From an uncultured bacterium (GTDB taxonomy: Bacteria; Patescibacteriota; Minisyncoccia; Phycocordibacterales; UBA918): a stretch of DNA of 64,000 nt. Numbering within the stretch: the stretch's first letter is position 1; every line of letters begins with the position of its first letter. The notes below the pieces were generated by a model that was not told where the DNA came from, made no database searches, and was given only the letters and a program-made list of their open reading frames with translations. The stretch lies in contig CBFGXL010000004.1 of the NCBI GenBank assembly GCA_965652925.1, forward strand, positions 358-64,357, in the 5' to 3' direction. Both the position numbers and the translations under genes were made by a program. Positions 1 to 62,724 of the stretch are shown one piece after another.

Positions 1-203
1 GGTGCGCCCATAGGGCGCACCCCCACCCCAAGCACACGCTTGGGGTTTTAATGTGGCGACTTTACAAAGCAGATTTTCCATAGTACACTCGCCGCACCTT
101 TCATAAGGTTTATTAATTCTCCCGATATACGGCCTAACCCTGGCGATACGGACACGGCACACGAGAAACTGCTCGCCAAACACCGTAGATCGGCATAGAC
201 ACA

Positions 204-2741: not shown

Positions 2742-3920
2742 ATGGAGGTCACCGCAACAGATTTTTTGAAGCACGCATCAAGCACTGCTGAGCATTTTGG
2801 TTTCAAGAATATTGAAGCCCTAAAAAAACACCCAGCCTGCAAAAGTTGCGCAAAAAAACTGGAACACACCGCAAGCGCACAAGACCGGCGCATCGACGCC
2901 TTGCACGGCATGCTCACTTCAGGTATGCACACCTTCTGTGACGCGAAACTCCACGCCATACCTGAACCCGTCCTTTTCTATACTATTGAACAGGTGCCTC
3001 GCTCAGGCGAGGCTGCGGTCACCTTCCAGGTGTTTAATGTCGAGAAGAGCATTGCTGAAGCAATTCTCATTCAAGCTACGCGGGCACTCACCCGTGATCT
3101 GGGGTTTTTGAATCACAGTGTGCGCATCAATTCGCTCGGCGATCGGGATTCTTCGACGCGATACATCCGGGAACTCACCAATTATCTCCGAAAGCGTCTG
3201 GACGATATGCCTGAAGCTGCTCGCGAGCTCATGAAGGAGCATGCACTCTCAGCTCTTACTCATCTCATAGAGAAGGAACACGAACTCGCCTATAAATCAC
3301 CCAACCCTCTGGAATATCTCTCCGACCAGAGCCGCAAGCACTTCAGAGAAATTGTCGAGTATTTGGATATGACTGATACACCGTATGAGATAGATCCAAA
3401 GCTCATCGGCCATCACGAGTGCTATTCTGACGCGCTGTTTGCCATTGACCTCCTCAACGACGAAGGTTCTCGAATACAGCACGCGCCACTCTATATACGA
3501 GGCGGACGATACAATGAATTCGTATACCGCAACACCAAACAGCAGATCCCTGCAGCGGGGGCAGTTGTTGTACTCCGTGACAAGAAGGCACCGGCACGAA
3601 CGCCTCGCACTCGTCTATCAACCCCGTCAGTATATGTGGTGCAGCTTGGATTCGGACCAAAGGTGACAAGTCTGGTTCTTATAGATGAACTGCGCAAAGC
3701 GGGTATCAGCGTCCACCAGAATCTTGCAAGTGATTCCCTCTCAACACAGCTACGCGATGCGGAGTCACGCAATGTGAAATATACGATCATCATAGGACAA
3801 AAAGAGTTTGTTGATGGCACAGTGATTCTTCGAGACATGGAGGGTCGCAATCAGGAGTACGTACCTATACAGGCTCTGGCTGGACGCTTGAAGCGTTCAG
3901 CACGGCAATCGACCCTGTAA
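2742..3920 (+). CDS. hisS: Histidyl-tRNA synthetase-like class II aaRS (divergent)
   Basis: GGRYNEF resembles the HisRS GGRYD motif. The C-terminal ~90 aa look like a class II anticodon-binding domain (VYVVQLG...TIIIGQKEFVDGTVILRDMEG). The N-terminal catalytic motifs are weakly conserved. Confidence 0.5.
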   Translation: MEVTATDFLKHASSTAEHFGFKNIEALKKHPACKSCAKKLEHTASAQDRRIDALHGMLTSGMHTFCDAKLHAIPEPVLFYTIEQVPRSGEAAVTFQVFNVEKSIAEAILIQATRALTRDLGFLNHSVRINSLGDRDSSTRYIRELTNYLRKRLDDMPEAARELMKEHALSALTHLIEKEHELAYKSPNPLEYLSDQSRKHFREIVEYLDMTDTPYEIDPKLIGHHECYSDALFAIDLLNDEGSRIQHAPLYIRGGRYNEFVYRNTKQQIPAAGAVVVLRDKKAPARTPRTRLSTPSVYVVQLGFGPKVTSLVLIDELRKAGISVHQNLASDSLSTQLRDAESRNVKYTIIIGQKEFVDGTVILRDMEGRNQEYVPIQALAGRLKRSARQSTL

Positions 3921-3978
3921 TAGAGGCCAGAAATTCACTTGCGTTGTTGGCGAGGGAATGGTATTCTTTCGCCCACAT

Positions 3979-4224
3979 ATGGCAACAAACGTTCAAGTAG
4001 AAAAGAATCAAAACGAGAGCAGCGCAAACGTCATTCGACGGTTCACTAAGCGCATGCAGGGATCGGGTGTACTTCAGCGCGTCCGCAAGAATCGCTACTA
4101 TTCTCGAACCAAGAGCGAGAACGTCCGCAAGGAGGCTCGGCTCAAGAAACTTACAAAGATGGTAGAGTACGAGAAGCAACTGAAACTCGGCAAGATCCAG
4201 GAAAAAGCTCCACGTCGACGATAA
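3979..4224 (+). CDS. rpsU: 30S ribosomal protein S21
   Basis: Basic 81-aa protein with an IRRFTKRMQGSGVLQRVRKNRYYSRTKSE pattern like S21. Start taken at internal MATNVQV. Terminator hairpin at 4229-4256. Confidence 0.7.
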   Translation: MATNVQVEKNQNESSANVIRRFTKRMQGSGVLQRVRKNRYYSRTKSENVRKEARLKKLTKMVEYEKQLKLGKIQEKAPRRR

Positions 4225-4694: not shown

Positions 4695-5867
4695 ATGACT
4701 GACCGCATCATAACTGGCATAGACGTAGGAACCTATCAGGTGAAGGTCGTTATTGTTCGTGTACCTATGAAAAAACAAGGAGAGCATACTCTCCCCCAAA
4801 TTATCGGTACCGGATACGCGGAAAGTCGCGGACTACGCAACGGATACATCATCAATGAAACTGACGTGGTGCGTAGCGTACGCAGTGCTGTTGCACAGGC
4901 AGAAAAAGCCGCGGGTGTGGAAGTAAAAAAAGCTTATGTGGCAATAGGAGGCATCGGTATAGATGAAATTACCTCAAAGGGGGAAATCATCACTTCTCGA
5001 GCGGATTCAGAGATCACACAGATCGACATCGACAAAGCCATGCAAGACAGCGAGGAACGGATCCAGGAACACATACCTAATCGAAAGATCCTCCACGCAA
5101 TTCCGCTGTCATACCGTGTTGACAATGAGCTCGTGCTCGGAAAGGCAATTGGCATGCGTGGGACAAAACTGGAGGTGGAGACACTTTTCATAACCACATT
5201 CGAACAACACCTCAACGACTTGGTAACTGCCATCGAAAACACAGGCATCGCTGTTGAGGATGTCATGGCTTCACCTCTTGCTGCTTCCTTTGTCATGCTC
5301 ACCAAAGCGCAGAAACGAGCCGGCTGTGTTTTGGCCAACATCGGAGCAGAAACGGTTTCCATAGTTGTGTTCGAGAACAGCACTCCTATTTCTATAAAAA
5401 TATTCCCTATCGGATCAAACGACATCACCAATGACATTGCTCTTGGCCTGAAGATCACTCTCGAAGAAGCTGAGAAGATCAAGCGCGGAGGGATGAGCAC
5501 AACCAATTACTCGAAGCGAAAACTTGACGAGATCATTGCTGCACGCCTCACCGACATCTTTGAACTCATCGACATGCATCTGAAGAAAATCAGGAAGGAT
5601 GGTCTCCTCCCCGCGGGAATCGTGATCACCGGTGGAGGTTCTGGTGTTGCAAGCATTCAGGACCTCGCCCGTGCTTCCCTTAAACTCCCTTCCCGCATCG
5701 CTACACTTGATCCAGGCCAGAACGGCAAAGTACGGGATGCTTCATGGGCAGTCTCCTATGGTCTGTGCATGTGGGGCGCAAGCGACAGCGAAGACAGCTC
5801 AACCATTGGAATCGCAAAGAAGACCAAGAACACACTTGTTAATTGGCTCAGTCAATTCCTCCCCTAA
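4695..5867 (+). CDS. ftsA: Cell division protein FtsA
   Basis: Actin-like ATPase motifs (ITGIDVGT..., IGGIGIDE, VITGGGSGV) at FtsA-like length. Confidence 0.85.
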   Translation: MTDRIITGIDVGTYQVKVVIVRVPMKKQGEHTLPQIIGTGYAESRGLRNGYIINETDVVRSVRSAVAQAEKAAGVEVKKAYVAIGGIGIDEITSKGEIITSRADSEITQIDIDKAMQDSEERIQEHIPNRKILHAIPLSYRVDNELVLGKAIGMRGTKLEVETLFITTFEQHLNDLVTAIENTGIAVEDVMASPLAASFVMLTKAQKRAGCVLANIGAETVSIVVFENSTPISIKIFPIGSNDITNDIALGLKITLEEAEKIKRGGMSTTNYSKRKLDEIIAARLTDIFELIDMHLKKIRKDGLLPAGIVITGGGSGVASIQDLARASLKLPSRIATLDPGQNGKVRDASWAVSYGLCMWGASDSEDSSTIGIAKKTKNTLVNWLSQFLP

Positions 5868-5868
5868 T

Positions 5869-6504
5869 TTAGTATTTAAGCCACTCTCCTTCAGACACGA
5901 CCTGTATAAGGTCGTTTTCTATTTTGATACCCGACTGATCATCTATCGCATAGAGTTCGTTGGAAATACCCTCTAAATATTTTCTGTTGCCCTGGTGACT
6001 CACCTGTTCAGGAGTATGCGGCGAGATCTCAAAATTGATAAAACCTAAACCAGAGAAGTCAGTAAGATCAGACAGATTCTTGTCTCCATCATCAATGCTT
6101 GCAATAGCAATACTTGGCGTCATTACAATTGTCCCAGCACTAATGCCAACTACAACTTTTTCGTCTCTATGAGAGTAAAGCCACTCCCCAAAGCCCGCCT
6201 TCCGTATCTGATCAATAAGGTGAAACGTATTACCTCCTGAGATCACTACACAGTCCACACTCTCGAACCGCCCTTTCCAGTCCACACCTTCGGCAGATAT
6301 GTCGATTATGTCTATCCACTGAAATCCAAATCCCTGAAGGTTTGAGAGCTGACGCAAAAACCATTCCTTATTGCCCGGTTCCACATTTGCAGCGGTGGGA
6401 ATGAATCCTATCTTTGTCTGACCATTAGGCTTCCCAAGAAGATCAGAAAGAGCGTCGGCAAGAGACCTATTAGTAATACCTGCGGAGGTAAGAAGCATTT
6501 TCAC
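5869..6504 (-). CDS. Peptidase S51 family (dipeptidase E-like)
   Basis: MKMLLTSAGI start and the VISGGNTFHLIDQIRKAGF segment match the S51 / class I glutamine amidotransferase-like fold. It lies between ftsA and ftsZ on the opposite strand. Confidence 0.6.
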   Translation of the reverse strand: MKMLLTSAGITNRSLADALSDLLGKPNGQTKIGFIPTAANVEPGNKEWFLRQLSNLQGFGFQWIDIIDISAEGVDWKGRFESVDCVVISGGNTFHLIDQIRKAGFGEWLYSHRDEKVVVGISAGTIVMTPSIAIASIDDGDKNLSDLTDFSGLGFINFEISPHTPEQVSHQGNRKYLEGISNELYAIDDQSGIKIENDLIQVVSEGEWLKY

Positions 6505-11410: not shown

Positions 11411-11573
11411 ACGTAATTGGTTATCATTACAGTGTATGACGCATTGGCTTTTTTAGCTAGAGTCGCCTTTTTTATGATTCTTGCTACGCACATACTTGTA
11501 CAACAGTGGTTACGAGTTATTGTAACGAAGAATCGAAGCTTACAGCTTCAGTACACCTTTTTGTATGCTCTGT

Positions 11574-11640
11574 GGTCACGAATTACTAAGGATTATTCGT
11601 CGTAAACTCCTCAAATCCTAAGTACTCTCGACCCCGCCTC
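11574..11640. repeat. tRNA-associated intergenic repeat, copy A
   Basis: Sequence is GGTCACGAATTACTAAG-N-CTAAGTACTCTCGACCCCGCCTC. It is homologous to the copies at 29261/29313, 53423 and 60350. Confidence 0.8.
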
Positions 11641-22870: not shown

Positions 22871-22931
22871 CAAACGGGGCACCCTAATGGGTGCCTTTGC
22901 CGTTTGTGCGCGATACAGGACTTGAACGGCG
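22871..22931 (+). terminator. tRNA-Val trailer: hairpin terminator plus inverted copy of the tRNA 3' end
   Basis: Hairpin caaacggggcaccc taat gggtgcctttgccgtttg, then tgcgcgatacaggacttgaacgg. The latter is a perfect ~28-nt inverted repeat of the tRNA 3' end gttcaagtcctgtatcgcgca. Confidence 0.6.
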
Positions 22932-23074
22932 GAGCGATGTGAGTGAAGCGAACCAGCGAGCCGTGTCCCGCGGCACTTATGAACGGATGCGAATTAGTGA
23001 CCATCAGGACAAGTCCTAGAGAAGACTTATATGAATCAAGTCCATTCTTTTCTTTAAATGCTATACTTCCCCAC

Positions 23075-29260: not shown

Positions 29261-29400
29261 CGGTCACAAGTTACTAAATCAAGACCAGGCTCGTCCTGAC
29301 GGTCTTTACTTATGGTCACGAATCACTAAGTATATTTGTTCGCATTCGCTCCAAATCTACTAAGTCAGGCTCGTCCTGACGGTCTCTAAGCTCGCAAGCT
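29261..29400. repeat. tRNA-associated intergenic repeat, copies D' and D (tandem, with degenerate tRNA-Phe T-arm copies)
   Basis: GGTCACAAGTTACTAA... at 29261 and GGTCACGAATCACTAAG... at 29313. Each is followed by CAGGCTCGTCCTGACGGTCT, which is similar to the tRNA-Phe 3' end GTCAGGCTCGAACTGACGACC. Confidence 0.75.
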
Positions 29401-29491
29401 CGCTAAGAGCCGCGGGACACGCCTCACTCGCCTAGCGGCATCGTTCCGGCGTTCGAGCCTGACCTCACTGTGCGCAGGCACAGTGCTCTCT

Positions 29492-29537
29492 GAGCACAAA
29501 TGAAAACAGCCCCTCGGGGCTGTTTTCATTTGTGCTC
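29492..29537 (-). terminator. tRNA-Phe trailer hairpin (22-bp stem) incorporating the tRNA 3' acceptor nucleotides
   Basis: Perfect palindrome gagcacaaatgaaaacagcccc-tcg-gggctgttttcatttgtgctc. It overlaps the 3' end of tRNA-Phe. Confidence 0.6.
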
Positions 29538-30104: not shown

Positions 30105-30235
30105 CCCGTATAAAAAGGACCAGTTTCACACTGGTCTTTTTTATATGGGCTTAAGGAATCGAAGAGGCTGACTAGTCTCTTACAAATGAAAATGACCCTT
30201 AGGTGGGTCATTTTCAATGCCAAACAATGTCTTGC

Positions 30236-49253: not shown

Positions 49254-49811
49254 TCAGCTTATAAGCTTGGCTGAGCGGCGCATGTTGAGATAGAGAGCAA
49301 TCAGAAGAGCAAACGTGATCGCAGACAAAAGCGGAAATGTCATAAACCCAAACTCATCTATCACCTTTGTGGCACAGTCAGCGGTACCGTCGGCAAGACA
49401 CGGCATGATCCCCGAAGTTGCAATTTCCTGAGGGATCATCTGGTATGCGTATTGATAGAGAGCAACACAAAGTCCGAACAGTGAAAGGGCAATACCGTAC
49501 AGCGGGAAATAAACTACATCTTTTATCTTCCATGCGATCACAGACATAAGTGCCTGCGGATATATAGCAATACGCTGCAGCCAGCACAGTGAACAAGGTA
49601 CAAATCCATAGTATTCAGAATACAAAAGCGATATCGCAACGCTCCCCGTTGTCAGAAGCATGACTGCAATTACTGCATATGGTGAAAACCACCGCTTGTA
49701 GTAGACACTTTTGAAAAGAAAATAGTCTACAAAAAGGAAAAGTGTGACTGGGATCAAAGCCAGTCCGCCAAGCGCAAAGAGGAAATTGAGGGTGTCGATC
49801 CAGAAATACAT
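49254..49811 (-). CDS. Disulfide bond formation protein B (DsbB/BdbC family)
   Basis: Four TM helices with a PCSLCWLQR CxxC motif in the first periplasmic loop. Confidence 0.7.
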   Translation of the reverse strand: MYFWIDTLNFLFALGGLALIPVTLFLFVDYFLFKSVYYKRWFSPYAVIAVMLLTTGSVAISLLYSEYYGFVPCSLCWLQRIAIYPQALMSVIAWKIKDVVYFPLYGIALSLFGLCVALYQYAYQMIPQEIATSGIMPCLADGTADCATKVIDEFGFMTFPLLSAITFALLIALYLNMRRSAKLIS

Positions 49812-49871
49812 AGCTTGTCTATTTACAAAAGCAGTATACCACGATGAGCCTTCACCTTACACGGCCAGTTT

Positions 49872-50408
49872 TTACCCAAAGAAGCGTGAACGGGTTCTCT
49901 GTTCCCACGAAGAAATGATCAGAGCCACATTCTCTTCCGGGGACTGTGTGCCGTCGATTTCCAGATCATATTTATTGAAAGTATGGATCGTCTCAAAGTC
50001 TTTACGCGCAGTTCCAAGCGGACGGTCACCTCTCTCTTTTTCCCGCCGCTCAAGTTCCTCAACAGGACAGTGTACGCCCACAAAAAAGAGATCGGTATCC
50101 TTGAGTATCTCAGACAGAAAGCTCTTCCATTCTTGATTTTCAATGATGTGTTCAACAATAAGATTATTGCCACTCTCAGCGTATGCTCGAAGCGAAAGAT
50201 GGAACCCCTTAAAAAATACCTCCCGGTGCTCTCCCCACTTGAATTCCCCTTGGGCAAATCTTTGGAGCGGCAAAACGCCCGCGTCACGAAGATGATCGAT
50301 TGAAATATGCCAAAAAGGCTCATCAATTTTAGATTGCAACAACTTTGCGATAGTTGACTTGCCTGAGCTCGTTGCTCCATGAAGCAAGATGATCTTTCCC
50401 GGCAACAT
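49872..50408 (-). CDS. Chloramphenicol phosphotransferase-like (CPT family) P-loop kinase
   Basis: Walker A ILLHGATSSGKSTIAK. The overall motif order (…HISIDHL…IVEHII…FFVGVHCPVEELERREKERGDRPLGTARKDF…) mirrors the Streptomyces Cpt/PF07931 architecture. Confidence 0.6.
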   Translation of the reverse strand: MLPGKIILLHGATSSGKSTIAKLLQSKIDEPFWHISIDHLRDAGVLPLQRFAQGEFKWGEHREVFFKGFHLSLRAYAESGNNLIVEHIIENQEWKSFLSEILKDTDLFFVGVHCPVEELERREKERGDRPLGTARKDFETIHTFNKYDLEIDGTQSPEENVALIISSWEQRTRSRFFG

Positions 50409-50461
50409 CCCGAAAGTATAACAAAAGTGGAGGCAAATCCGCTTACGGCGGACTCACCCCG

Positions 50462-51016
50462 TTAAGCTTCAGCGGGTCTCACCATTTCAATAACTGGCAT
50501 GCCTTTAAAAAGAGGCATTTCTGCATCAGTCTTTTCAAATCCGTACTTGGTATAGAATCCGATCGCCGAAGTGTTAAAAGCAAATGCCTCTAAACGAGCA
50601 GGCTTATCTTTGTCGGCCCATGATAAAAATGTTTCCATGAGTTTGCCTCCCACCCCCGAGGCCTTGGCCTCATTCAGCAAATAAACAGCATCGAGCTCGG
50701 TATAGTCATCATGTTTAGACCCATGTAGAAAACCCACGATGTTCCCATCTTTATTTTTAACAACCCTGTAGAGAACTTTGTCTGGATCTGCCAAAGCTTC
50801 TTTGATCGTGTTTTTTCGGAAATCGGTATTGATCAGCAGATGCTTAAGCAGCTCATCAACCTTTTCTTCTGTGAGGCCGGATTCCTGGAGCACATATGTT
50901 TCTTTCCAAGCTTGTATATGCATGGGCGCCAAGGCAAGTTCATCTCCCACTTTTGGTAGTTCAATTTTGAATGTCGGTTCAGTTTCTACTGACATAGATT
51001 TTTCTAGCTCTTCCAT
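50462..51016 (-). CDS. GNAT family N-acetyltransferase
   Basis: Acetyl-CoA binding motif region ...ASGVGGKLMETFLSWA. 184 aa. Confidence 0.7.
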   Translation of the reverse strand: MEELEKSMSVETEPTFKIELPKVGDELALAPMHIQAWKETYVLQESGLTEEKVDELLKHLLINTDFRKNTIKEALADPDKVLYRVVKNKDGNIVGFLHGSKHDDYTELDAVYLLNEAKASGVGGKLMETFLSWADKDKPARLEAFAFNTSAIGFYTKYGFEKTDAEMPLFKGMPVIEMVRPAEA

Positions 51017-51137
51017 AGATTTATTACATCACCGTGACAAAGAAATGTCGAGCCAATGCTCTGGTAGGAAATTGCCGCTGCACAAAAACAAATGCCGCCC
51101 AGTAGTGCCGGGGCGGCTTCGGTTTGTTCGTATTCAT

Positions 51138-51500
51138 TCAGGTCTCGCACAGTGCGTCGATCTCTTCAGATGGCGGGGGTTCAGGTGAAAGAACCGATTC
51201 GCCGAACCGAAGCTCAATGTTTGTGAGAATGCGCCTGATAATCTCCTCCGCCAGTTCAGCGTTCACGTCCTCGACTTTCTCGCCGCGGGCGTTCGCAAAC
51301 ATCTCGCAGAGGGTTCTGATGGCCTCTTTCTGCCCTTCTCTGTTACTCATTTCGTGGGCGAACGTAATGAGCTCTTCTTTTTGCCTATCTTTGACAAAAA
51401 GAGCAGCGGTTAACACCGCTGTGTTAATATCCCTCTGCAGCAGCGTCATGACGCTCTCCTGTGAGTTTGAGATGAAAAAGCCGCAATGCGGTCTGGCCAA
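51138..51500 (-). CDS. Hypothetical protein
   Basis: 120-aa ORF, acidic and helical. No family recognised. The start could be the internal MTLLQRD. Confidence 0.3.
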   Translation of the reverse strand: MARPHCGFFISNSQESVMTLLQRDINTAVLTAALFVKDRQKEELITFAHEMSNREGQKEAIRTLCEMFANARGEKVEDVNAELAEEIIRRILTNIELRFGESVLSPEPPPSEEIDALCET

Positions 51501-51618
51501 TTTATACCATGTTATTTATAAAAGTCGAGCTAGCGTTCTGGGCGAGATTGGAACTTTTTAATACAAAAAGAACCCTTTGTTTAGACTCGCGGGTTCAAAC
51601 GAGTTATACATTTGCAGG

Positions 51619-52026
51619 TTAGTCGCGCAAGCGGAATCTCCGTTGCCGTTCAACACTGCGGAATTTGATGGCAACCTTCTTTTCCTCGGGTCTTGTCAGA
51701 GTAAGCACCCCCGCAGCTTTTCCGCACGAAAACGGAATGCCCCGCGATTGGTTCACCAGCAGACGAAACTCCGCTTTGAGTTCGCGATAAGGTGCAGGAG
51801 TCATTCGGTCTTTCACCCTAACACTGCAGGCGCCCTCGACAGTAATCTCATAGTCCTCATAGGCTGTGTCGAGCCGAATCCAAGAGATCTTCCTGTGCGA
51901 CCACCGCGGAGAGGTCGAGGCATCCGCCTCCTCTCCAGTGTCTCTGAGAAAGAACTCACGAATGAGCGCGTCGACCTTGCGAAGCGCTTCTTCTGTGTAG
52001 CGAGTCGTCTCAAAAGAATTTCCCAT
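51619..52026 (-). CDS. Hypothetical protein
   Basis: 135-aa ORF with no recognised family. The region upstream of it (52030-52200) is AT-rich and promoter-like. Confidence 0.3.
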   Translation of the reverse strand: MGNSFETTRYTEEALRKVDALIREFFLRDTGEEADASTSPRWSHRKISWIRLDTAYEDYEITVEGACSVRVKDRMTPAPYRELKAEFRLLVNQSRGIPFSCGKAAGVLTLTRPEEKKVAIKFRSVERQRRFRLRD

Positions 52027-52199
52027 TCACATTCTCCATCGCGGAAATGAGTGATATCAACCGACATCGCATCGGCACAATATTTATATCATAAATATTG
52101 AAAAAGTCAATATATTGCTGTCCATTGTCCATATGGGATGAAGTCGGGACTTTTGTAAAATTGACAAATTGATATTCCGCATAGATACTTCTTCTAAGT

Positions 52200-52592
52200 C
52201 TGAAGAGATAGGAAATCAAACGAGACTCCGGGAAGTAGGTGCCGTACCAAAAACCGGATCAGGCCAATTAGGAACCAGGTCTGCGCGAGAAGCTCCTCAT
52301 ACGTGAGTATTGGAGCACCATAGAGGGTACACAGTCCCGTATTGTGAGCAGGAAAGTTCAAACTGAGTAGGGGTAAGTTGCGGACAGACCCAACCCGAAA
52401 ATGGGGGCACGGTTTGCCTCCAAGCCTCAGGTCTCTTCAGACGGGGAGAAATTACACGTGCAAGCTTAAGCCGTTAGGTGTAGGCGCAGCGCAAGCGAGT
52501 TCCAACGCGGAGCGAACAAGTACGTTTCTCCCCTCAAACAAGCCGTGGTGGTCACTGATCACCACGGTTTTTCTTTTCTGTGGCGCTCTGGG
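52200..52592 (+). ncRNA. Candidate structured ncRNA of unknown class (promoter-to-terminator unit lacking an ORF)
   Basis: A sigma70-like promoter TTGACA-17nt-GATACT at 52163-52196. Strong intrinsic terminator ccgtggtggtcactgatcaccacgg + T-run at ~52552-52590. No ORF longer than 70 aa in sense. Long-range complementary segments (ggtctgcgc...gcggacagacc; acggggagaaa...tttctccccuc). Confidence 0.35.
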
Positions 52593-52700
52593 ACGAAGCT
52601 TGAAATGTATGGGTATACATTTCAAGGAGGTTACCTGCTCTTTTGTTTAAAAAGAGCGATAACCTGTACTGAACATGTAATGTTGGAACTTTTTTTATCT

Positions 52701-53267
52701 TTATTGTGACTCACCGTCAGAATAAACAGCAATTCTGTCATCAATATATTTGCTTTGTCTTTTATAGGAAACAAGTAAGAAGATGAGCGCGAAAATAAAT
52801 ATCAATTCAGGGTTAATATTTGCAAAACTTTGGGACTCTGTATAAAGCTTCATAAAAAGCCAAACAGCTGGTGTTAGCACCACAACCGCTATAAGGGTTT
52901 TGTAGAGCTCCTTCATCATAACTAGTTTTTCAATAGTGATGTCCTTTTTAGAAGCAATGACATAGTCTCGGTACCAATTACTTTTCTTATTAGGATCCTG
53001 ATTTTTCTCCTTTTTTGATGAAGAAGAAAAGGTCTTGGAAAAATACATCATGATAAATGTCCCTACTCGGTTCGCAAACACACCCGCAATGAAATACAAG
53101 ACGAGTAGATTCACGATATCAAGCGTTTGAGGTGAATCGGGAGTAACATCAACCCCAGCAAAAGTTTCCAAGAGGAAAACAAAAAACACTCCAGGTATGA
53201 AGTGACATATCAAATTGTAGGATGAAACTGTTGAAAAATTGGCTGTGACCGACTCGGGAATATTCAT
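52701..53267 (-). CDS. Hypothetical membrane protein
   Basis: 188 aa with about four TM helices. It lies immediately downstream (minus sense) of repeat copy B. No family recognised. Confidence 0.35.
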   Translation of the reverse strand: MNIPESVTANFSTVSSYNLICHFIPGVFFVFLLETFAGVDVTPDSPQTLDIVNLLVLYFIAGVFANRVGTFIMMYFSKTFSSSSKKEKNQDPNKKSNWYRDYVIASKKDITIEKLVMMKELYKTLIAVVVLTPAVWLFMKLYTESQSFANINPELIFIFALIFLLVSYKRQSKYIDDRIAVYSDGESQ

Positions 53268-53422
53268 AATTTTCTTGATTTAATTGAAGCTTTTACTCAG
53301 CCTCCTTACTGAGCAATATATACCCGAATAAAGCTTAACTATTTCCAAGCAACGAATTTGGGTTTTCGTCAAAAATTTGTACCCTGAGCTTCGAGTGCTT
53401 GGTGCAAAGCCTCCCAGGATTC

Positions 53423-53489
53423 GGTCACGAGTTACTAAGCCTTTTGCTCCAAGCGTTCACAAAAGTCTAAGTACTCTCGACCCCGGCTC
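53423..53489. repeat. tRNA-associated intergenic repeat, copy B
   Basis: GGTCACGAGTTACTAAG-N26-CTAAGTACTCTCGACCCCGGCTC. It is followed at 53527-53541 by an inverted copy (ttcgagtccttgtac) of the tRNA-Gln 3' end. Confidence 0.8.
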
Positions 53490-53549
53490 GCAGGCCCAGA
53501 GGGTTCCCTGCTCCGCCTTTCGAGTCCTTGTACTCCGAGCAACGGCAAA

Positions 53550-53577
53550 GGCCGCAAACACTCACGTGTTTGCGGCC
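53550..53577 (-). terminator. Hairpin terminator downstream of tRNA-Gln
   Basis: ggccgcaaacac-tcac-gtgtttgcggcc, a 12-bp stem. Confidence 0.55.
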
Positions 53578-53586
53578 TGCCGATTG

Positions 53587-53657
53587 CTGGGGTACAAGGA
53601 CTCGAACCTCGATACTCAGGACCAAAACCTGATGTCCTACCATTAGACGATACCCCA
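53587..53657 (-). tRNA. tRNA-Gln (anticodon TTG)
   Basis: Sense strand TGGGGTATCGTCTAATGGTAGGACATCAGGTTTTGGTCCTGAGTATCGAGGTTCGAGTCCTTGTACCCCAG. U1-A72 and the TGGGGTA...TACCCCAG ends match bacterial tRNA-Gln. Confidence 0.85.
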
Positions 53658-53675
53658 ATATGCATCTGTACTGCA

Positions 53676-53810
53676 GCGTCAATACTCAGGACCATTTCAT
53701 TACATGAACGGTTCAGGTTGTCGCTCTTTCTTCCAAAAAGAGCTGGCAACCTCCTTCAAGACTCCCCCGGACTCTTGAAGCCTGATGTCCTGCCATGAGA
53801 CGATACCCCA
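53676..53810 (-). pseudogene. Degenerate tRNA-Gln-like fragments (pseudo-tRNA / possible integration-site remnant)
   Basis: On the minus strand, GGGGTATCGTCTCATGGCAGGACATCAGG (near-copy of the tRNA-Gln 5' half) is followed by a ~60-nt insert containing a hairpin, and then GGTCCTGAGTATTGACG (copy of the anticodon 3' stem/variable region). There is no intact T-arm. Confidence 0.5.
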
Positions 53811-53918
53811 AGTGCAAGCGCAATACTAACGCACTGACACCACTATTTCAACCGGACTTCATGCGTTCTTCGGGGTCTGTCTGGTACACTATTTTCATTA
53901 ACATTAAGCACGAGCACT

Positions 53919-54281
53919 ATGGCTTACGTAGATGGTTTTGTATTGGTGGTCCCCAAAGAGAACAAGGCAGCATATAAGAAGATGGCAAAAGAAGGAGCAA
54001 AAGCCTGGAAGGAATTTGGCGCCCTTGAGTACAAGGAATGCCGGGCTGACGATATGACCCCCAACAATGTATTCTTCACTTTTCCCAAGATGGCCAAGGC
54101 AAAAGAAGGAGAAGAGGTGTGGTTCTCTTTTATTGTATTCAAGAATAAAGCTGAACGAAATGCGATCAACAAGAAAGTAATGGCGTATTTTGACAAGAAG
54201 TATGCAGGCAAAGACATGCCAATGCCATTTGACATGAAGCGCTTTGCATACGGCGGGTTCACTGTTGAAATCGAGGCATAG
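53919..54281 (+). CDS. DUF1428 domain protein
   Basis: MAYVDGFVLVVPKENKAAYKKMA... matches the DUF1428 consensus. 120 aa. Bidirectional terminator at 54296-54335. Confidence 0.65.
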   Translation: MAYVDGFVLVVPKENKAAYKKMAKEGAKAWKEFGALEYKECRADDMTPNNVFFTFPKMAKAKEGEEVWFSFIVFKNKAERNAINKKVMAYFDKKYAGKDMPMPFDMKRFAYGGFTVEIEA

Positions 54282-60273: not shown

Positions 60274-60349
60274 GCACAGTAGTCTAACAAAGCCGCCATG
60301 ATTGCGGAAGCAATCATGGCGGCTTTCAATCACAGGATTGGTCACGAGT

Positions 60350-60403
60350 TACTAAGCAAATTGTCGCAAGCTCCATTTTGCTAAGTACTCGCGACCCCGC
60401 CTC
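60350..60403. repeat. tRNA-associated intergenic repeat, copy C
   Basis: GGTCACGAGTTACTAAG-N23-CTAAGTACTCGCGACCCCGCCTC. It is followed by partial copies of the tRNA-Thr 3' end: ttcaatcctg at 60425 and 60601, and gagccaatgatcaggattgaa at 60506-60526. Confidence 0.8.
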
Positions 60404-60633
60404 GCTCGTAAACATCGCTTCGGCCTTCAATCCTGAACAGAAGCGAATCAGTTCGCTTCTTTCATTGTCTTGCAGCAAAATTGCCCAGCACTATGCTGGG
60501 CAATTTTGCTGCTGAGCCAATGATCAGGATTGAAACTTACAGTTTCTGTATACCTTTTGGCTATTTCTGTTCGCTAGCTCCAGAAATAGCACAAAAGCTT
60601 TTCAATCCTGCTCCTTTTACTGCGTAAAAGTTG

Positions 60634-60691
60634 CGCACATTGGCTCATATACAAAAGACCCCGAAAAGGGGTCCTTGGATATGAGCCAATG
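60634..60691 (-). terminator. tRNA-Thr(GGT) trailer: hairpin plus inverted copy of the tRNA acceptor 3' end
   Basis: cattggctcatat-acaaaa-gacccc-gaaaa-ggggtc-cttgg-atatgagccaatg. The outer arms pair the tRNA 3' end with a downstream inverted copy. Confidence 0.6.
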
Positions 60692-62544: not shown

Positions 62545-62724
62545 CAGTATACATAAAGGCCGGCTTTATAGCCGGTCTTTATGTATACTACACCTGAGGG
62601 ACTTGAAGAGGTTGCCTGCAATTTTGAAGCATGAAAAATTGCGACAACCTGTACCGATCCTGTAAGGATCAAGTCCCTTTTTCCATTTGAAAGAAAGTGC
62701 CAAATATAGTAGTCTGTTGCTCAC

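Follow-up and report, generated by a model that had tools for sequence, protein, structure and literature searches.

A tRNA-Gln gene flanked by probable tRNA-docking cassettes of structured RNA modules in an uncultured member of Patescibacteria

Introduction

Patescibacteria (candidate phyla radiation, CPR) comprise a large share of bacterial diversity and have tiny genomes with mostly single-copy tRNA genes. To our knowledge, their non-coding RNA content is almost uncharted. Here we describe the surroundings of a tRNA-Gln gene in a 64,000-nt stretch of DNA (hereafter, the window) from an uncultured bacterium of this group (Minisyncoccia, Phycocordibacterales, UBA918; GenBank assembly GCA_965652925.1, contig CBFGXL010000004.1, positions 358–64,357 of the forward strand). 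An earlier note on this DNA had read the partial tRNA copies beside the gene as a scar of repeated integration and excision or as a decaying second tRNA-Gln gene. We found that the intact gene is accompanied on both sides by units containing structured RNA modules, here termed F1 and F2. The modules belong to families, have a conserved secondary structure, are directionally associated with tRNAs, are framed by tRNA copies, and vary among close relatives. We consider it probable that the units are polymorphic tRNA-docking cassettes of such modules, and also probable that these cassettes form an uncatalogued, Patescibacteria-specific, protein-less, and modular family with units of ca. 85–150 nt.

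Several described systems resemble this arrangement. Repetitive extragenic palindromic sequences and bacterial interspersed mosaic elements (REP/BIME) and repeats like transposable elements of the miniature inverted-repeat type (MITEs), for example the BIMEs of Escherichia coli and the Correia elements of Neisseria, share with the present units that they are short, non-coding, and multicopy, lie at gene 3′ ends, and are (here putatively) co-transcribed. These repeats further share palindromic units in alternating orientation with distinct linkers, strain variation, and the lack of a transposase in cis. However, the arms of the present units copy the 3′ end of the neighbouring tRNA and so differ per locus, the linkers are the covarying structured modules F1 and F2, and the units show tRNA stem-loop docking and strict co-orientation, with no RAYT or transposase partner found in the searches described below. 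As in MITEs, there are many non-coding copies of similar size, whereas family-wide terminal inverted repeats and short fixed target-site duplications are not seen; the direct repeats are 12–34-nt copies of tRNA 3′ ends.

Islands and prophages inserted by tRNA-targeting integrases share the T-loop and anticodon loop as targets, the partial duplication of a tRNA that keeps the gene intact, and stacking. Unlike them, the present loci have no recorded integrase, inserts of only 83–150 nt, inverted as well as direct copies, duplications of the tRNA 5′ part, and identity that ends at mature tRNA ends. Group I introns and archaeal non-canonical tRNA introns likewise place a structured RNA precisely in the anticodon loop (34/35) or the T-loop (53/54), with related inserts at different positions of different tRNAs. 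In contrast to group I introns (at least 200 nt), the 83-nt insert described here has no catalytic core P3–P9, and its 3′ exon is incomplete. The interrupted copies are incomplete and always stand beside an intact gene, so there is no need for splicing and no way for it to occur. A bulge-helix-bulge motif was not identified, though no dedicated search for it was run, and no EndA-like Pfam match was found among the window genes.

Non-tRNA RNAs joined to a tRNA-like helix are also known: plant tRNA-snoRNA genes cut by RNase Z, the mascRNA of MALAT1, 3′ETS-leuZ of E. coli, YrlA Y RNAs, and engineered scaffolds. There, the tRNA-like helix can recruit RNase P or RNase Z and stabilise the product, processing being only putative for the present units. 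Those RNAs are single conserved loci, whereas the present units form a multicopy polymorphic family with an inverted tRNA 3′-end copy. Finally, quasipalindrome template-switch mutagenesis would account for the way in which the terminator hairpin is lengthened by sequence perfectly complementary to the trailer and tRNA 3′ end, and for the exact-complement 5′ arms described below. It leaves unexplained why the cargo is conserved, why there is a fixed stop at T54, and why a direct copy follows the cargo.

By analogy, the closest described relatives would be REP/BIME and MITE-like repeats in organisation, tRNA-integrative elements in target choice, tRNA introns in geometry, and tRNA-linked RNAs in expression logic. 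Each known system fails at least one defining feature when tested; therefore, we file the cassettes as new small repetitive elements without assigning them to a named family.

Organization of the tRNA-Gln locus

All coordinates are window positions, and the intergenic region examined (53268–53918) is read on the minus strand (Table 1). ARAGORN and the Rfam tRNA model (RF00005, down to E ≤ 10) detected nothing tRNA-like upstream of the intact tRNA-Gln(UUG). A promoter-like site precedes the 5′ end of a pseudo-tRNA by 12 nt. TTGAAATAGTG..TAGTAT is also kept upstream of tRNA-Gln in a relative (L087; fetched loci are given as L numbers), and the site is probably the native tRNA-Gln promoter.

The pseudo-tRNA begins with a near-copy of the tRNA-Gln 5′ half, as the earlier note had recognized. 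This copy spans the acceptor 5′ strand, the D-arm, the anticodon-stem 5′ strand, and the first anticodon-loop bases; its invariant A14 is changed to C, and its best BLAST segment within the window (53781–53811) is 31 nt long with 93.5% identity (E = 5e-7). The insert that follows had been described as ca. 60 nt long and hairpin-containing but is 83 nt long and holds three hairpins, and no tRNA base was lost. hp1, its first hairpin, is an accessory hairpin found ahead of F1 in many family members, with homologues in L045 and L089. Beyond the F1 core, the copy resumes with what remains of the anticodon loop, continues through the 3′ strand of the anticodon stem, and takes in the variable loop, again in agreement with the earlier note. 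The unit has no T-arm, no acceptor 3′ strand, and no counterpart of nt 47–72. In the predicted fold (z = −3.3), 53682–53694 and 53781–53785 pair as a 5-bp helix closing a four-way junction of hp1, P2, and P3.

Table 1 Features of the tRNA-Gln locus and of related units in the window.
Feature	Position	Strand	Evidence or description
Promoter-like site TTGAAA-17-TAGTAT	53823–53851	−	only sigma-70-like match in 53200–54000
Copy of tRNA-Gln nt −1..33	53778–53811	−	31/34 (91%) identical to 53625–53658
83-nt insert	53695–53777	−	between anticodon nt 34 and 35
hp1 hairpin CTTCAAGAG-TCC-GGG-GGA-G-TCTTGAAG	53754–53780	−	inverted-repeat search and fold
F1 core module	53695–53756	−	covariance model R1, 71.3 bits, E = 2.9e-18
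F1 part, P2	53715–53752	−	
F1 part, linker GAACCG	53709–53714	−	
F1 part, P3 with GUA loop	53696–53708	−	
TGGTCCTGAGTAT, copy of tRNA-Gln nt 34–46	53682–53694	−	13/13 identical
Native tRNA-Gln 5′ leader, 24 nt	53658–53681	−	CGCTGCAG..GCATAT leader also in L085
tRNA-Gln(UUG), intact	53587–53657	−	ARAGORN and Rfam, sole tRNA call (start 53586/7)
Terminator-like hairpin, 12–13-bp stem	53550–53577	−	inverted-repeat search
Inverted copy of trailer and tRNA 3′ end	53519–53549	−	ends at complement of T54
F2 module AGGCGGAGC...GAGCCGGGGTCGAGAGTACTTAG...CTTAGTAACTCGTGACC ("repeat copy B")	53423–53518	−	directly after ..GGACTCGAA
Putative degenerate direct copy, T-loop/T-stem 3′ part, closing the F2 unit	53414–53422	−	GAATCCTGG vs GAGTCCTTG
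F1 copy	62605–62670	+	R1, 77.6 bits; between tRNA-Asp and tRNA-Met
F1 copy	52624–52685	+	R1, 74.3 bits
Diverged F1 variant	60532–60603	−	R1, 35 bits; after tRNA-Thr(GGT)
Unit B after tRNA-Asp	62596–62677	+	inverted T-loop copy GAGGGACTTGAAG, F1 62605–62670, direct copy TCAAGTCCC
Unit C, hp1 and F1 (74.3 bits)	52599–52685	+	not beside a tRNA; inside the variable region 3′ of tRNA-Gln
Stacked units after tRNA-Thr(GGT)	60340–60646	−	F1 variant 60532–60603, F2 60340–60424
Unit after tRNA-Val	22907–23002	+	21-nt inverted 3′-end copy 22907–22927, then F2 22928–23002
Unit after tRNA-Phe	29381–29497, on to ~29220	−	inverted acceptor strand, 24-nt hairpin, inverted T-stem/loop, F2
tRNA-Arg remnant of the arrangement	~30150–30175	+	

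The 24 nt between this unit and the gene (53658–53681) are the native leader, because L085, which has no pseudo-copy, has CGCTGCAG..GCATAT directly before its tRNA-Gln. Reading them as a decayed T-arm gives 11/24 in-register identity (manual count), yet the leader is common with L085. A decaying tandem duplicate of tRNA-Gln with a chance insertion, the second proposal of the earlier note, would fit the changed A14 and the missing T-arm. However, the insert scores 71 bits as a member of a conserved covarying family, the supposed remnant of the T-arm is the leader, and like units precede tRNA-Arg and tRNA-Gln genes in eight other genomes. We thus consider decay very improbable. Still less probable, to the point of being hardly credible, is a functional intron-containing tRNA whose insert would splice itself out or be excised by an endonuclease and a ligase. 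The insertion is indeed precise, and 34/35 is the position of the group I intron of cyanobacterial tRNA-Leu. But neither a T-arm nor an acceptor 3′ strand follows nt 46, interrupted copies are always accompanied by an intact tRNA, and ARAGORN and the Rfam tRNA model find nothing at 53682–53811, reporting only 53587–53657. Group I intron model RF00028 has no match at E ≤ 10 in 53250–53950, though a tRNA intron in L076 matches it at 78 bits.

Downstream of the gene, the terminator-like hairpin is followed by an inverted copy of the tRNA 3′ end, exact over 15 nt (53519–53533 vs 53592–53606) as the earlier note had stated, which covers the acceptor 3′ strand, the T-stem 3′ strand, and the T-loop. 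With the trailer included, it provides 29-nt arms (79%) around the 13-bp terminator stem, and the extended hairpin has a predicted fold with z = −9.2. The repeat seen after it in the earlier note is F2. In L087, L060, L026, and L046, a copy of the tRNA 3′ end is clearly recognizable after F2; by comparison with them, 53414–53422 appears to be a degenerate copy of this kind.

F1, a conserved structured module found mainly in Patescibacteria

F1 consists of a long hairpin P2, a CUGUACUG linker, and a hairpin P3, in this order. In P2, GGUUGCC...GACAACC encloses a covarying stem with a conserved C·A and a bulged A/U; the linker reads CUGWACYG, and P3 has 5 bp and a GUA loop. Self-comparison of the window yielded two further core copies whose hairpin stems differ by compensatory changes, and the window holds three strict copies and one variant in all.

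The pattern GAGGTTRCC-N14-34-GAYAACCTGWACYG, run against the species-representative genomes of GTDB, matched 74 stretches, ca. 69 of which were judged real; nearly all of these are from Patescibacteria, with at least 78 copies there. Matches without hairpins (L030, L033, L059, L061, and L084) were set aside as chance. The metagenome-assembled genomes bearing F1 are from Kaiserbacteria, Paceibacteria/Parcubacteria, Nomurabacteria, and bins labelled 'Saccharibacteria'. The covariance model R1 gave 113 matches at E ≤ 1e-3 in 535 kb of fetched loci.

In an alignment of 74 distinct copies, 97.2% of the pair cells are paired. Both sides change in 14 of the 20 pairs, with 209 compensatory cells, whereas none of 500 shuffles reached the observed pairing and slid controls dropped to 36–54% paired. 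The nucleotides of the junction are invariant across genera. On the tRNA-sense strand, G·U exceeds A·C by 27:9; therefore, the folded strand is the strand transcribed with the tRNA.

Some F1 copies show further features. In about 40% of the copies, the tip of P2 is lengthened by an optional element containing a tandem G·A motif (UGAsn..nsGAA; alignment columns 22–37; L052, L072, L077, and L080), which resembles a k-turn or k-loop and hints at a protein partner of the L7Ae/Nop type. In seven loci (L012, L044, L066, L043, L031, L042, and L025), F1 occurs in longer multi-hairpin RNAs of the form GGUGAGAAAUGGGA..hp..GCAA-F1-P3-CCCAUUUCGCAAGAC-CUUGCC[hp]GACAAGG.., which may be a larger structured RNA built of the same modules. 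In L031, a 5S rRNA gene precedes F1 by ca. 90 nt, both being on the minus strand (F1 and gene at 3757–3816 and 3905–4012), and stable-RNA genes beyond tRNAs may host such units. In L083 (minus strand, ca. 5160–6050), the 5′ end of a GH1 beta-glucosidase gene (M..FPxxFxWG) is present as three partial, diverged copies, with F1-type units after each; the last partial copy runs into the intact open reading frame (ORF), giving the same logic of partial copy, element, and intact gene at a protein-coding gene.

F2, a second module downstream of tRNAs

The F2 motif, GSCGGAGC... / GAGSCGGGGTCGMGAGTACTTA / ...TTAGTAACTCGTGACC, follows an inverted T-loop copy of the upstream tRNA. The window has all three blocks at 53423–53518, together with four more F2 copies. 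The 22-mer GAGSCGGGGTCGMGAGTACTTA was found in more than 120 metagenome stretches. All copies with enough context (61/61) sit 67–248 nt downstream of a co-oriented tRNA, between an inverted T-loop copy and a direct 3′-end copy, and these tRNAs represent 29 anticodon types.

At 11535–11560 (minus strand) of the window, an isolated F1 P3 fragment (20.9 bits) stands beside an F2 copy (11574–11636, minus strand), ca. 900 nt from tRNA-Glu. This is probably a decayed or displaced unit.

Units framed by copies of the adjacent tRNA

We inspected all nine tRNAs of the window. Behind each of tRNA-Val, tRNA-Phe, tRNA-Thr(GGT), and tRNA-Asp stand a hairpin and then the 3′ end of that tRNA in reverse complement, and the inverted copies reach as far as the complement of T54. 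Chance origin of the inverted copy at tRNA-Gln is excluded because the same architecture occurs at these four tRNAs and as a remnant at tRNA-Arg, each with its own 3′ end. The body after the inverted copy is F1 at tRNA-Asp and tRNA-Thr, and F2 at tRNA-Val, tRNA-Phe, tRNA-Gln, and the second tRNA-Thr unit; in the clearest units, a direct copy from the T-loop to the 3′ end comes after the body. At tRNA-Thr(GGT), an inverted 3′-end copy, the F1 variant, a 22-nt direct copy (60514–60535), a second terminator, a second inverted T-loop copy, and F2 follow one another. The stacked order common to this locus, L060, and L026 is tRNA, terminator, inverted copy, F1, 3′-end copy, second terminator, inverted copy with hp1, F2, and 3′-end copy.

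For 35 of the 78 F1 copies, a tRNA lies no more than 200 nt upstream, and for 10, no more than 200 nt downstream; all are co-oriented, and none of the copies with a tRNA within 200 nt faces against it. Most of the 35 are followed by an exact 12–34-nt copy of the tRNA 3′ end, and the 10 are preceded by a copy of the tRNA 5′ part of up to 51 nt. In about a dozen loci, the direct 3′-end copy runs to the discriminator and no further. In the predicted folds of the units (F1 unit, z = −10.5; F2 unit, z = −6.1), the cargo caps a long T-like stem, which is accompanied by hp1 and an acceptor-like stem.

The 5′ arms of the units are exact complements of the tRNA 3′ strand and not copies of the tRNA's own 5′ strand, as seen from A3 in place of G3·U70 in tRNA-Ala units (L041 and the second L026 unit), A6 in the tRNA-Val unit, and CAAGG rather than CGAGG in the tRNA-Gln unit. 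The tRNA-Ala-derived units (L041, ca. 3715–3760, minus strand; L026, second unit) carry A3-U70 in the acceptor-like stem and, if made as RNA, should not be charged by alanyl-tRNA synthetase.

The upstream arrangement at tRNA-Gln also recurs. A partial 5′ copy, hp1, and F1 accompany an intact tRNA of the same identity at tRNA-Arg(UCU) in L020, L027, L046, and L064, and the same set stands with an intact tRNA at tRNA-Arg(CCU) in L034 and at tRNA-Gln(CUG) in L024 and L057. L045 has two tandem units of tRNA-Gln(UUG) 5′ copy, hp1, and F1 at a contig end, with the intact gene beyond view. In L076 (43–330, minus strand), an F1 unit with a 24-nt 5′-end copy lies immediately upstream of the tRNA that bears the group I intron (RF00028, 78 bits). 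F1 was considered as a part of such an intron and rejected: the intron sits in the downstream intact tRNA and F1 upstream with the partial 5′ copy, so that the two are unrelated.

Units usually break at 53/54, after the GG that closes the T-stem 5′ strand, and the upstream unit of the window breaks after the GG that closes the anticodon-stem 5′ strand. The anticodon arm of tRNA-Gln(UUG), AGG UUUUGGU CCU, resembles the T-arm, AGG UUCGAGU CCU. The upstream copy may thus represent docking at a T-arm look-alike.

Polymorphism among related genomes

To compare orthologous tRNA-Gln loci, we fetched them through PyrG homologues; L009 is of the same species as the window. In L085, the closest relative (PyrG, 94%), whose tRNA-Gln differs from that of the window by 1 nt, neither the pseudo-copy nor F1 is present upstream, where the leader is the same. 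Downstream, L085 has a terminator, a degenerate inverted copy, F1 (74 bits), a direct 3′-end copy, and a second terminator. L087/L088 (89%) have the promoter as in the window and an unrelated 110-nt leader upstream, and F2 and a 3′-end copy downstream. In L089 (87%), a 21-nt 5′ copy is found upstream, and a GACACCAGG/CTTCAAGAGTC.. junction, an F1 variant, and a 3′-end copy are found downstream; the window-type junction (anticodon-stem 5′ strand joined to CTTCAAGAG) is thus downstream, not upstream, of tRNA-Gln. The strain variant L009 is identical to the window upstream but has F1 in place of F2 downstream, its inverted copy being perfect over 18 nt and its terminator stem differing from that of the window by compensatory changes.

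The arrangement of the window is therefore not kept at orthologous loci, as L085, L087, and L089 differ from it. Downstream of the orthologous genes, F1 is present in L085 and L009 and F2 in the window and L087, a distribution that does not track relatedness. Presence or absence of units and exchange of F1 and F2 among relatives indicate that the tRNA-Gln locus is a polymorphic hotspot. The orthologous upstream regions are too diverged to align for exact insertion boundaries.

This variation bears on another explanation, that the units are host-beneficial small RNAs or aptamers on a natural tRNA scaffold, matured and stabilised by RNase P, RNase Z, and the CCA-adding enzyme and spread by duplication and selection. 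The predicted folds resemble a cloverleaf in which the acceptor-like stem is flush and the discriminator unpaired, and are consistent with this explanation, as are the 3′-end copies that stop at the discriminator, the terminator hairpin that each unit has of its own, the invariant junction nucleotides, and the strict co-orientation with tRNAs. On the other hand, units come and go and cargo is swapped in near-identical strains and close species; tandem or stacked copies, degenerate remnants, and units in variable regions resemble a selfish repeat; and the upstream unit of the window cannot form an acceptor stem. We consider this explanation rather unlikely. It overlaps mechanistically with the reading of the units as tRNA-docking cassettes.

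Searches for mobility genes and catalogued families

Among the called genes in ca. 2–64 kb of the window, Pfam recorded no integrase, transposase, reverse transcriptase, or homing-endonuclease domain, and no tyrosine or serine recombinase gene beside a repeat. Clustering of the ORFs of at least 90 aa from 69 F1-bearing loci gave no family common to more than six loci, and the few shared families (unannotated, judged by leading residues) look like ordinary cellular genes. An autonomous transposase-bearing relative was found neither in the window nor near the 69 loci, whole genomes being outside this search. The strict F1 pattern had no match in IMG/VR, and a phage origin of F1 was rejected on this basis.

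At the gathering threshold, Rfam 15 reported only tRNAs in the window and, in the 18 loci scanned with it, elsewhere rRNA and one group I intron. At permissive E-values (four regions), F1 and F2 gave only chance-level matches. The window-type hp1 junction had no match in the JGI metagenomes, and the full-text literature searched contained no description of such tRNA-linked elements. Hammerhead, hairpin, twister, pistol, and hatchet ribozymes did not match in a manual comparison of junctions and in Rfam scans. TIGR arrays consist of 36-nt box C/D-type guide units according to the TIGR-Tas paper, and these published units are unlike F1 and F2.

The first proposal of the earlier note corresponds to tyrosine-integrase elements that repeatedly entered and left tRNA-Gln, leaving att-type copies. 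The partial tRNA copies do mark foreign DNA gained or exchanged at this gene, a reading supported by the empty upstream site of L085, the unrelated leader of L087, the downstream junction of L089, and the different cargo of L009. The T-loop and anticodon loop, the insertion points here, are reportedly the sublocations preferred by tRNA-targeting integrases; direct 3′-end repeats flank the downstream units, and the gene content 3′ of tRNA-Gln differs between the window and L085. The footprint itself is not the classical integrase one, however. No integrase was recorded among the called window genes or recurs near the 69 loci, and only 83–150 nt, not a kb-scale element, lie between the repeats. 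The upstream repeat is the tRNA 5′ part (nt 1–33 and 34–46), and the cargo separates an inverted from a direct copy, which is not an att core. Moreover, one cargo occurs at no fewer than 29 tRNA species with arms matching each host. Integrase scars are therefore an improbable explanation of the locus.

A model of tRNA-docking cassettes

We propose that a cassette would consist of F1 or F2 as cargo, often with hp1, set in a tRNA-derived stem-loop. The cargo would usually lie between inverted and direct copies running from the T-loop to the 3′ end, and sometimes after a copy of the tRNA 5′ part; the cassette would always be oriented as the tRNA, and one intact tRNA copy would always be kept. At tRNA-Gln, the upstream unit would be nt 1–33, hp1, F1, and nt 34–46, its cargo having landed in the anticodon stem-loop as a T-arm look-alike (AGG-UUUUGGU-CCU, likened to the usual docking site AGG-UUCGAGU-CCU), and the copied anticodon stem is predicted to serve as the helix closing the four-way junction. 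The downstream unit would be the terminator, the inverted 3′-end copy, F2, and the degenerate 3′-end copy.

The units would be co-transcribed with the tRNA from the promoter at 53823–53851. RNase P and RNase Z may cut the tRNA and tRNA-like ends and release the cargo RNAs, the tRNA-derived helices acting as scaffold and processing signal. Spread and exchange could proceed by recombination or template switching at the near-palindromic T-loop, or by an enzyme acting in trans. The exact-complement 5′ arms and the long terminator-centred palindromes fit hairpin-templated copying, which alone leaves the fixed T54 stop and the conserved cargo unexplained.

Several points weigh against this model. 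Because the search pattern came from window copies, with the outer P2 helix and the linker held constant, conservation at those positions is partly circular, and the covariation evidence rests on inner P2 and P3. Covariation in a repeated element can also reflect selection during propagation and not host function. F1 occurs away from tRNAs as well, namely in unit C and, as part of multi-module RNAs, in intergenic and 5′ regions, and tRNA docking is thus not obligatory. A simple transposon cannot carry host-specific inverted arms between tRNAs, and therefore the arms must be made locally. The upstream unit lacks an acceptor 3′ strand, and the tRNA-scaffold idea does not fit it as it does the downstream units. 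Transcription, processing by RNase P and RNase Z, and an RNA-level function of the units are inferred from sequence.

F1 and F2 might even be RNA parts of a new RNA-level genetic element, either a tRNA-scaffold system with functional cargo or an RNA-mediated mobile element, in which a ribozyme-like or guide-like module would recognise T-arm-like stem-loops (..GG/UU..) and copy tRNA fragments. We raise this as a speculative proposal, doubtful as it stands, because the breakpoints lie at tRNA loops and mature ends, the 5′ arms are exact complements, and the junction nucleotides are invariant across the phylum.

The proposed tRNA-docking cassettes contain two conserved structured modules that are absent from Rfam, stand beside dozens of different tRNA genes in many genera, and vary among strains. 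If the modules are processed RNAs, CPR would have a new and abundant class of small RNAs that parallels, in nature, the engineered tRNA scaffold; if they move, the element would be one that has no protein and copies its own target by an unexplained route. In practice, tRNA fragments in CPR genomes ought not to be classed by default as integrase scars or pseudogenes.

Variable region 3′ of tRNA-Gln

The gene content from tRNA-Gln to a conserved PKD/TIG protein differs between the window (ca. 49254–53267) and L085 (7535–10067). The window has three hypothetical genes, GNAT, a CPT-like kinase, and DsbB in this interval, and L085 has an 87-aa hypothetical gene, VanZ, and DUF4256. The region is without an integrase, and the F1 of unit C lies inside it on the opposite strand. 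The contig of L009 ends 21 nt into its F1 cargo (positions 1–22); as this contig end suggests, F1/F2 repeats probably break short-read Patescibacteria assemblies at tRNA loci.

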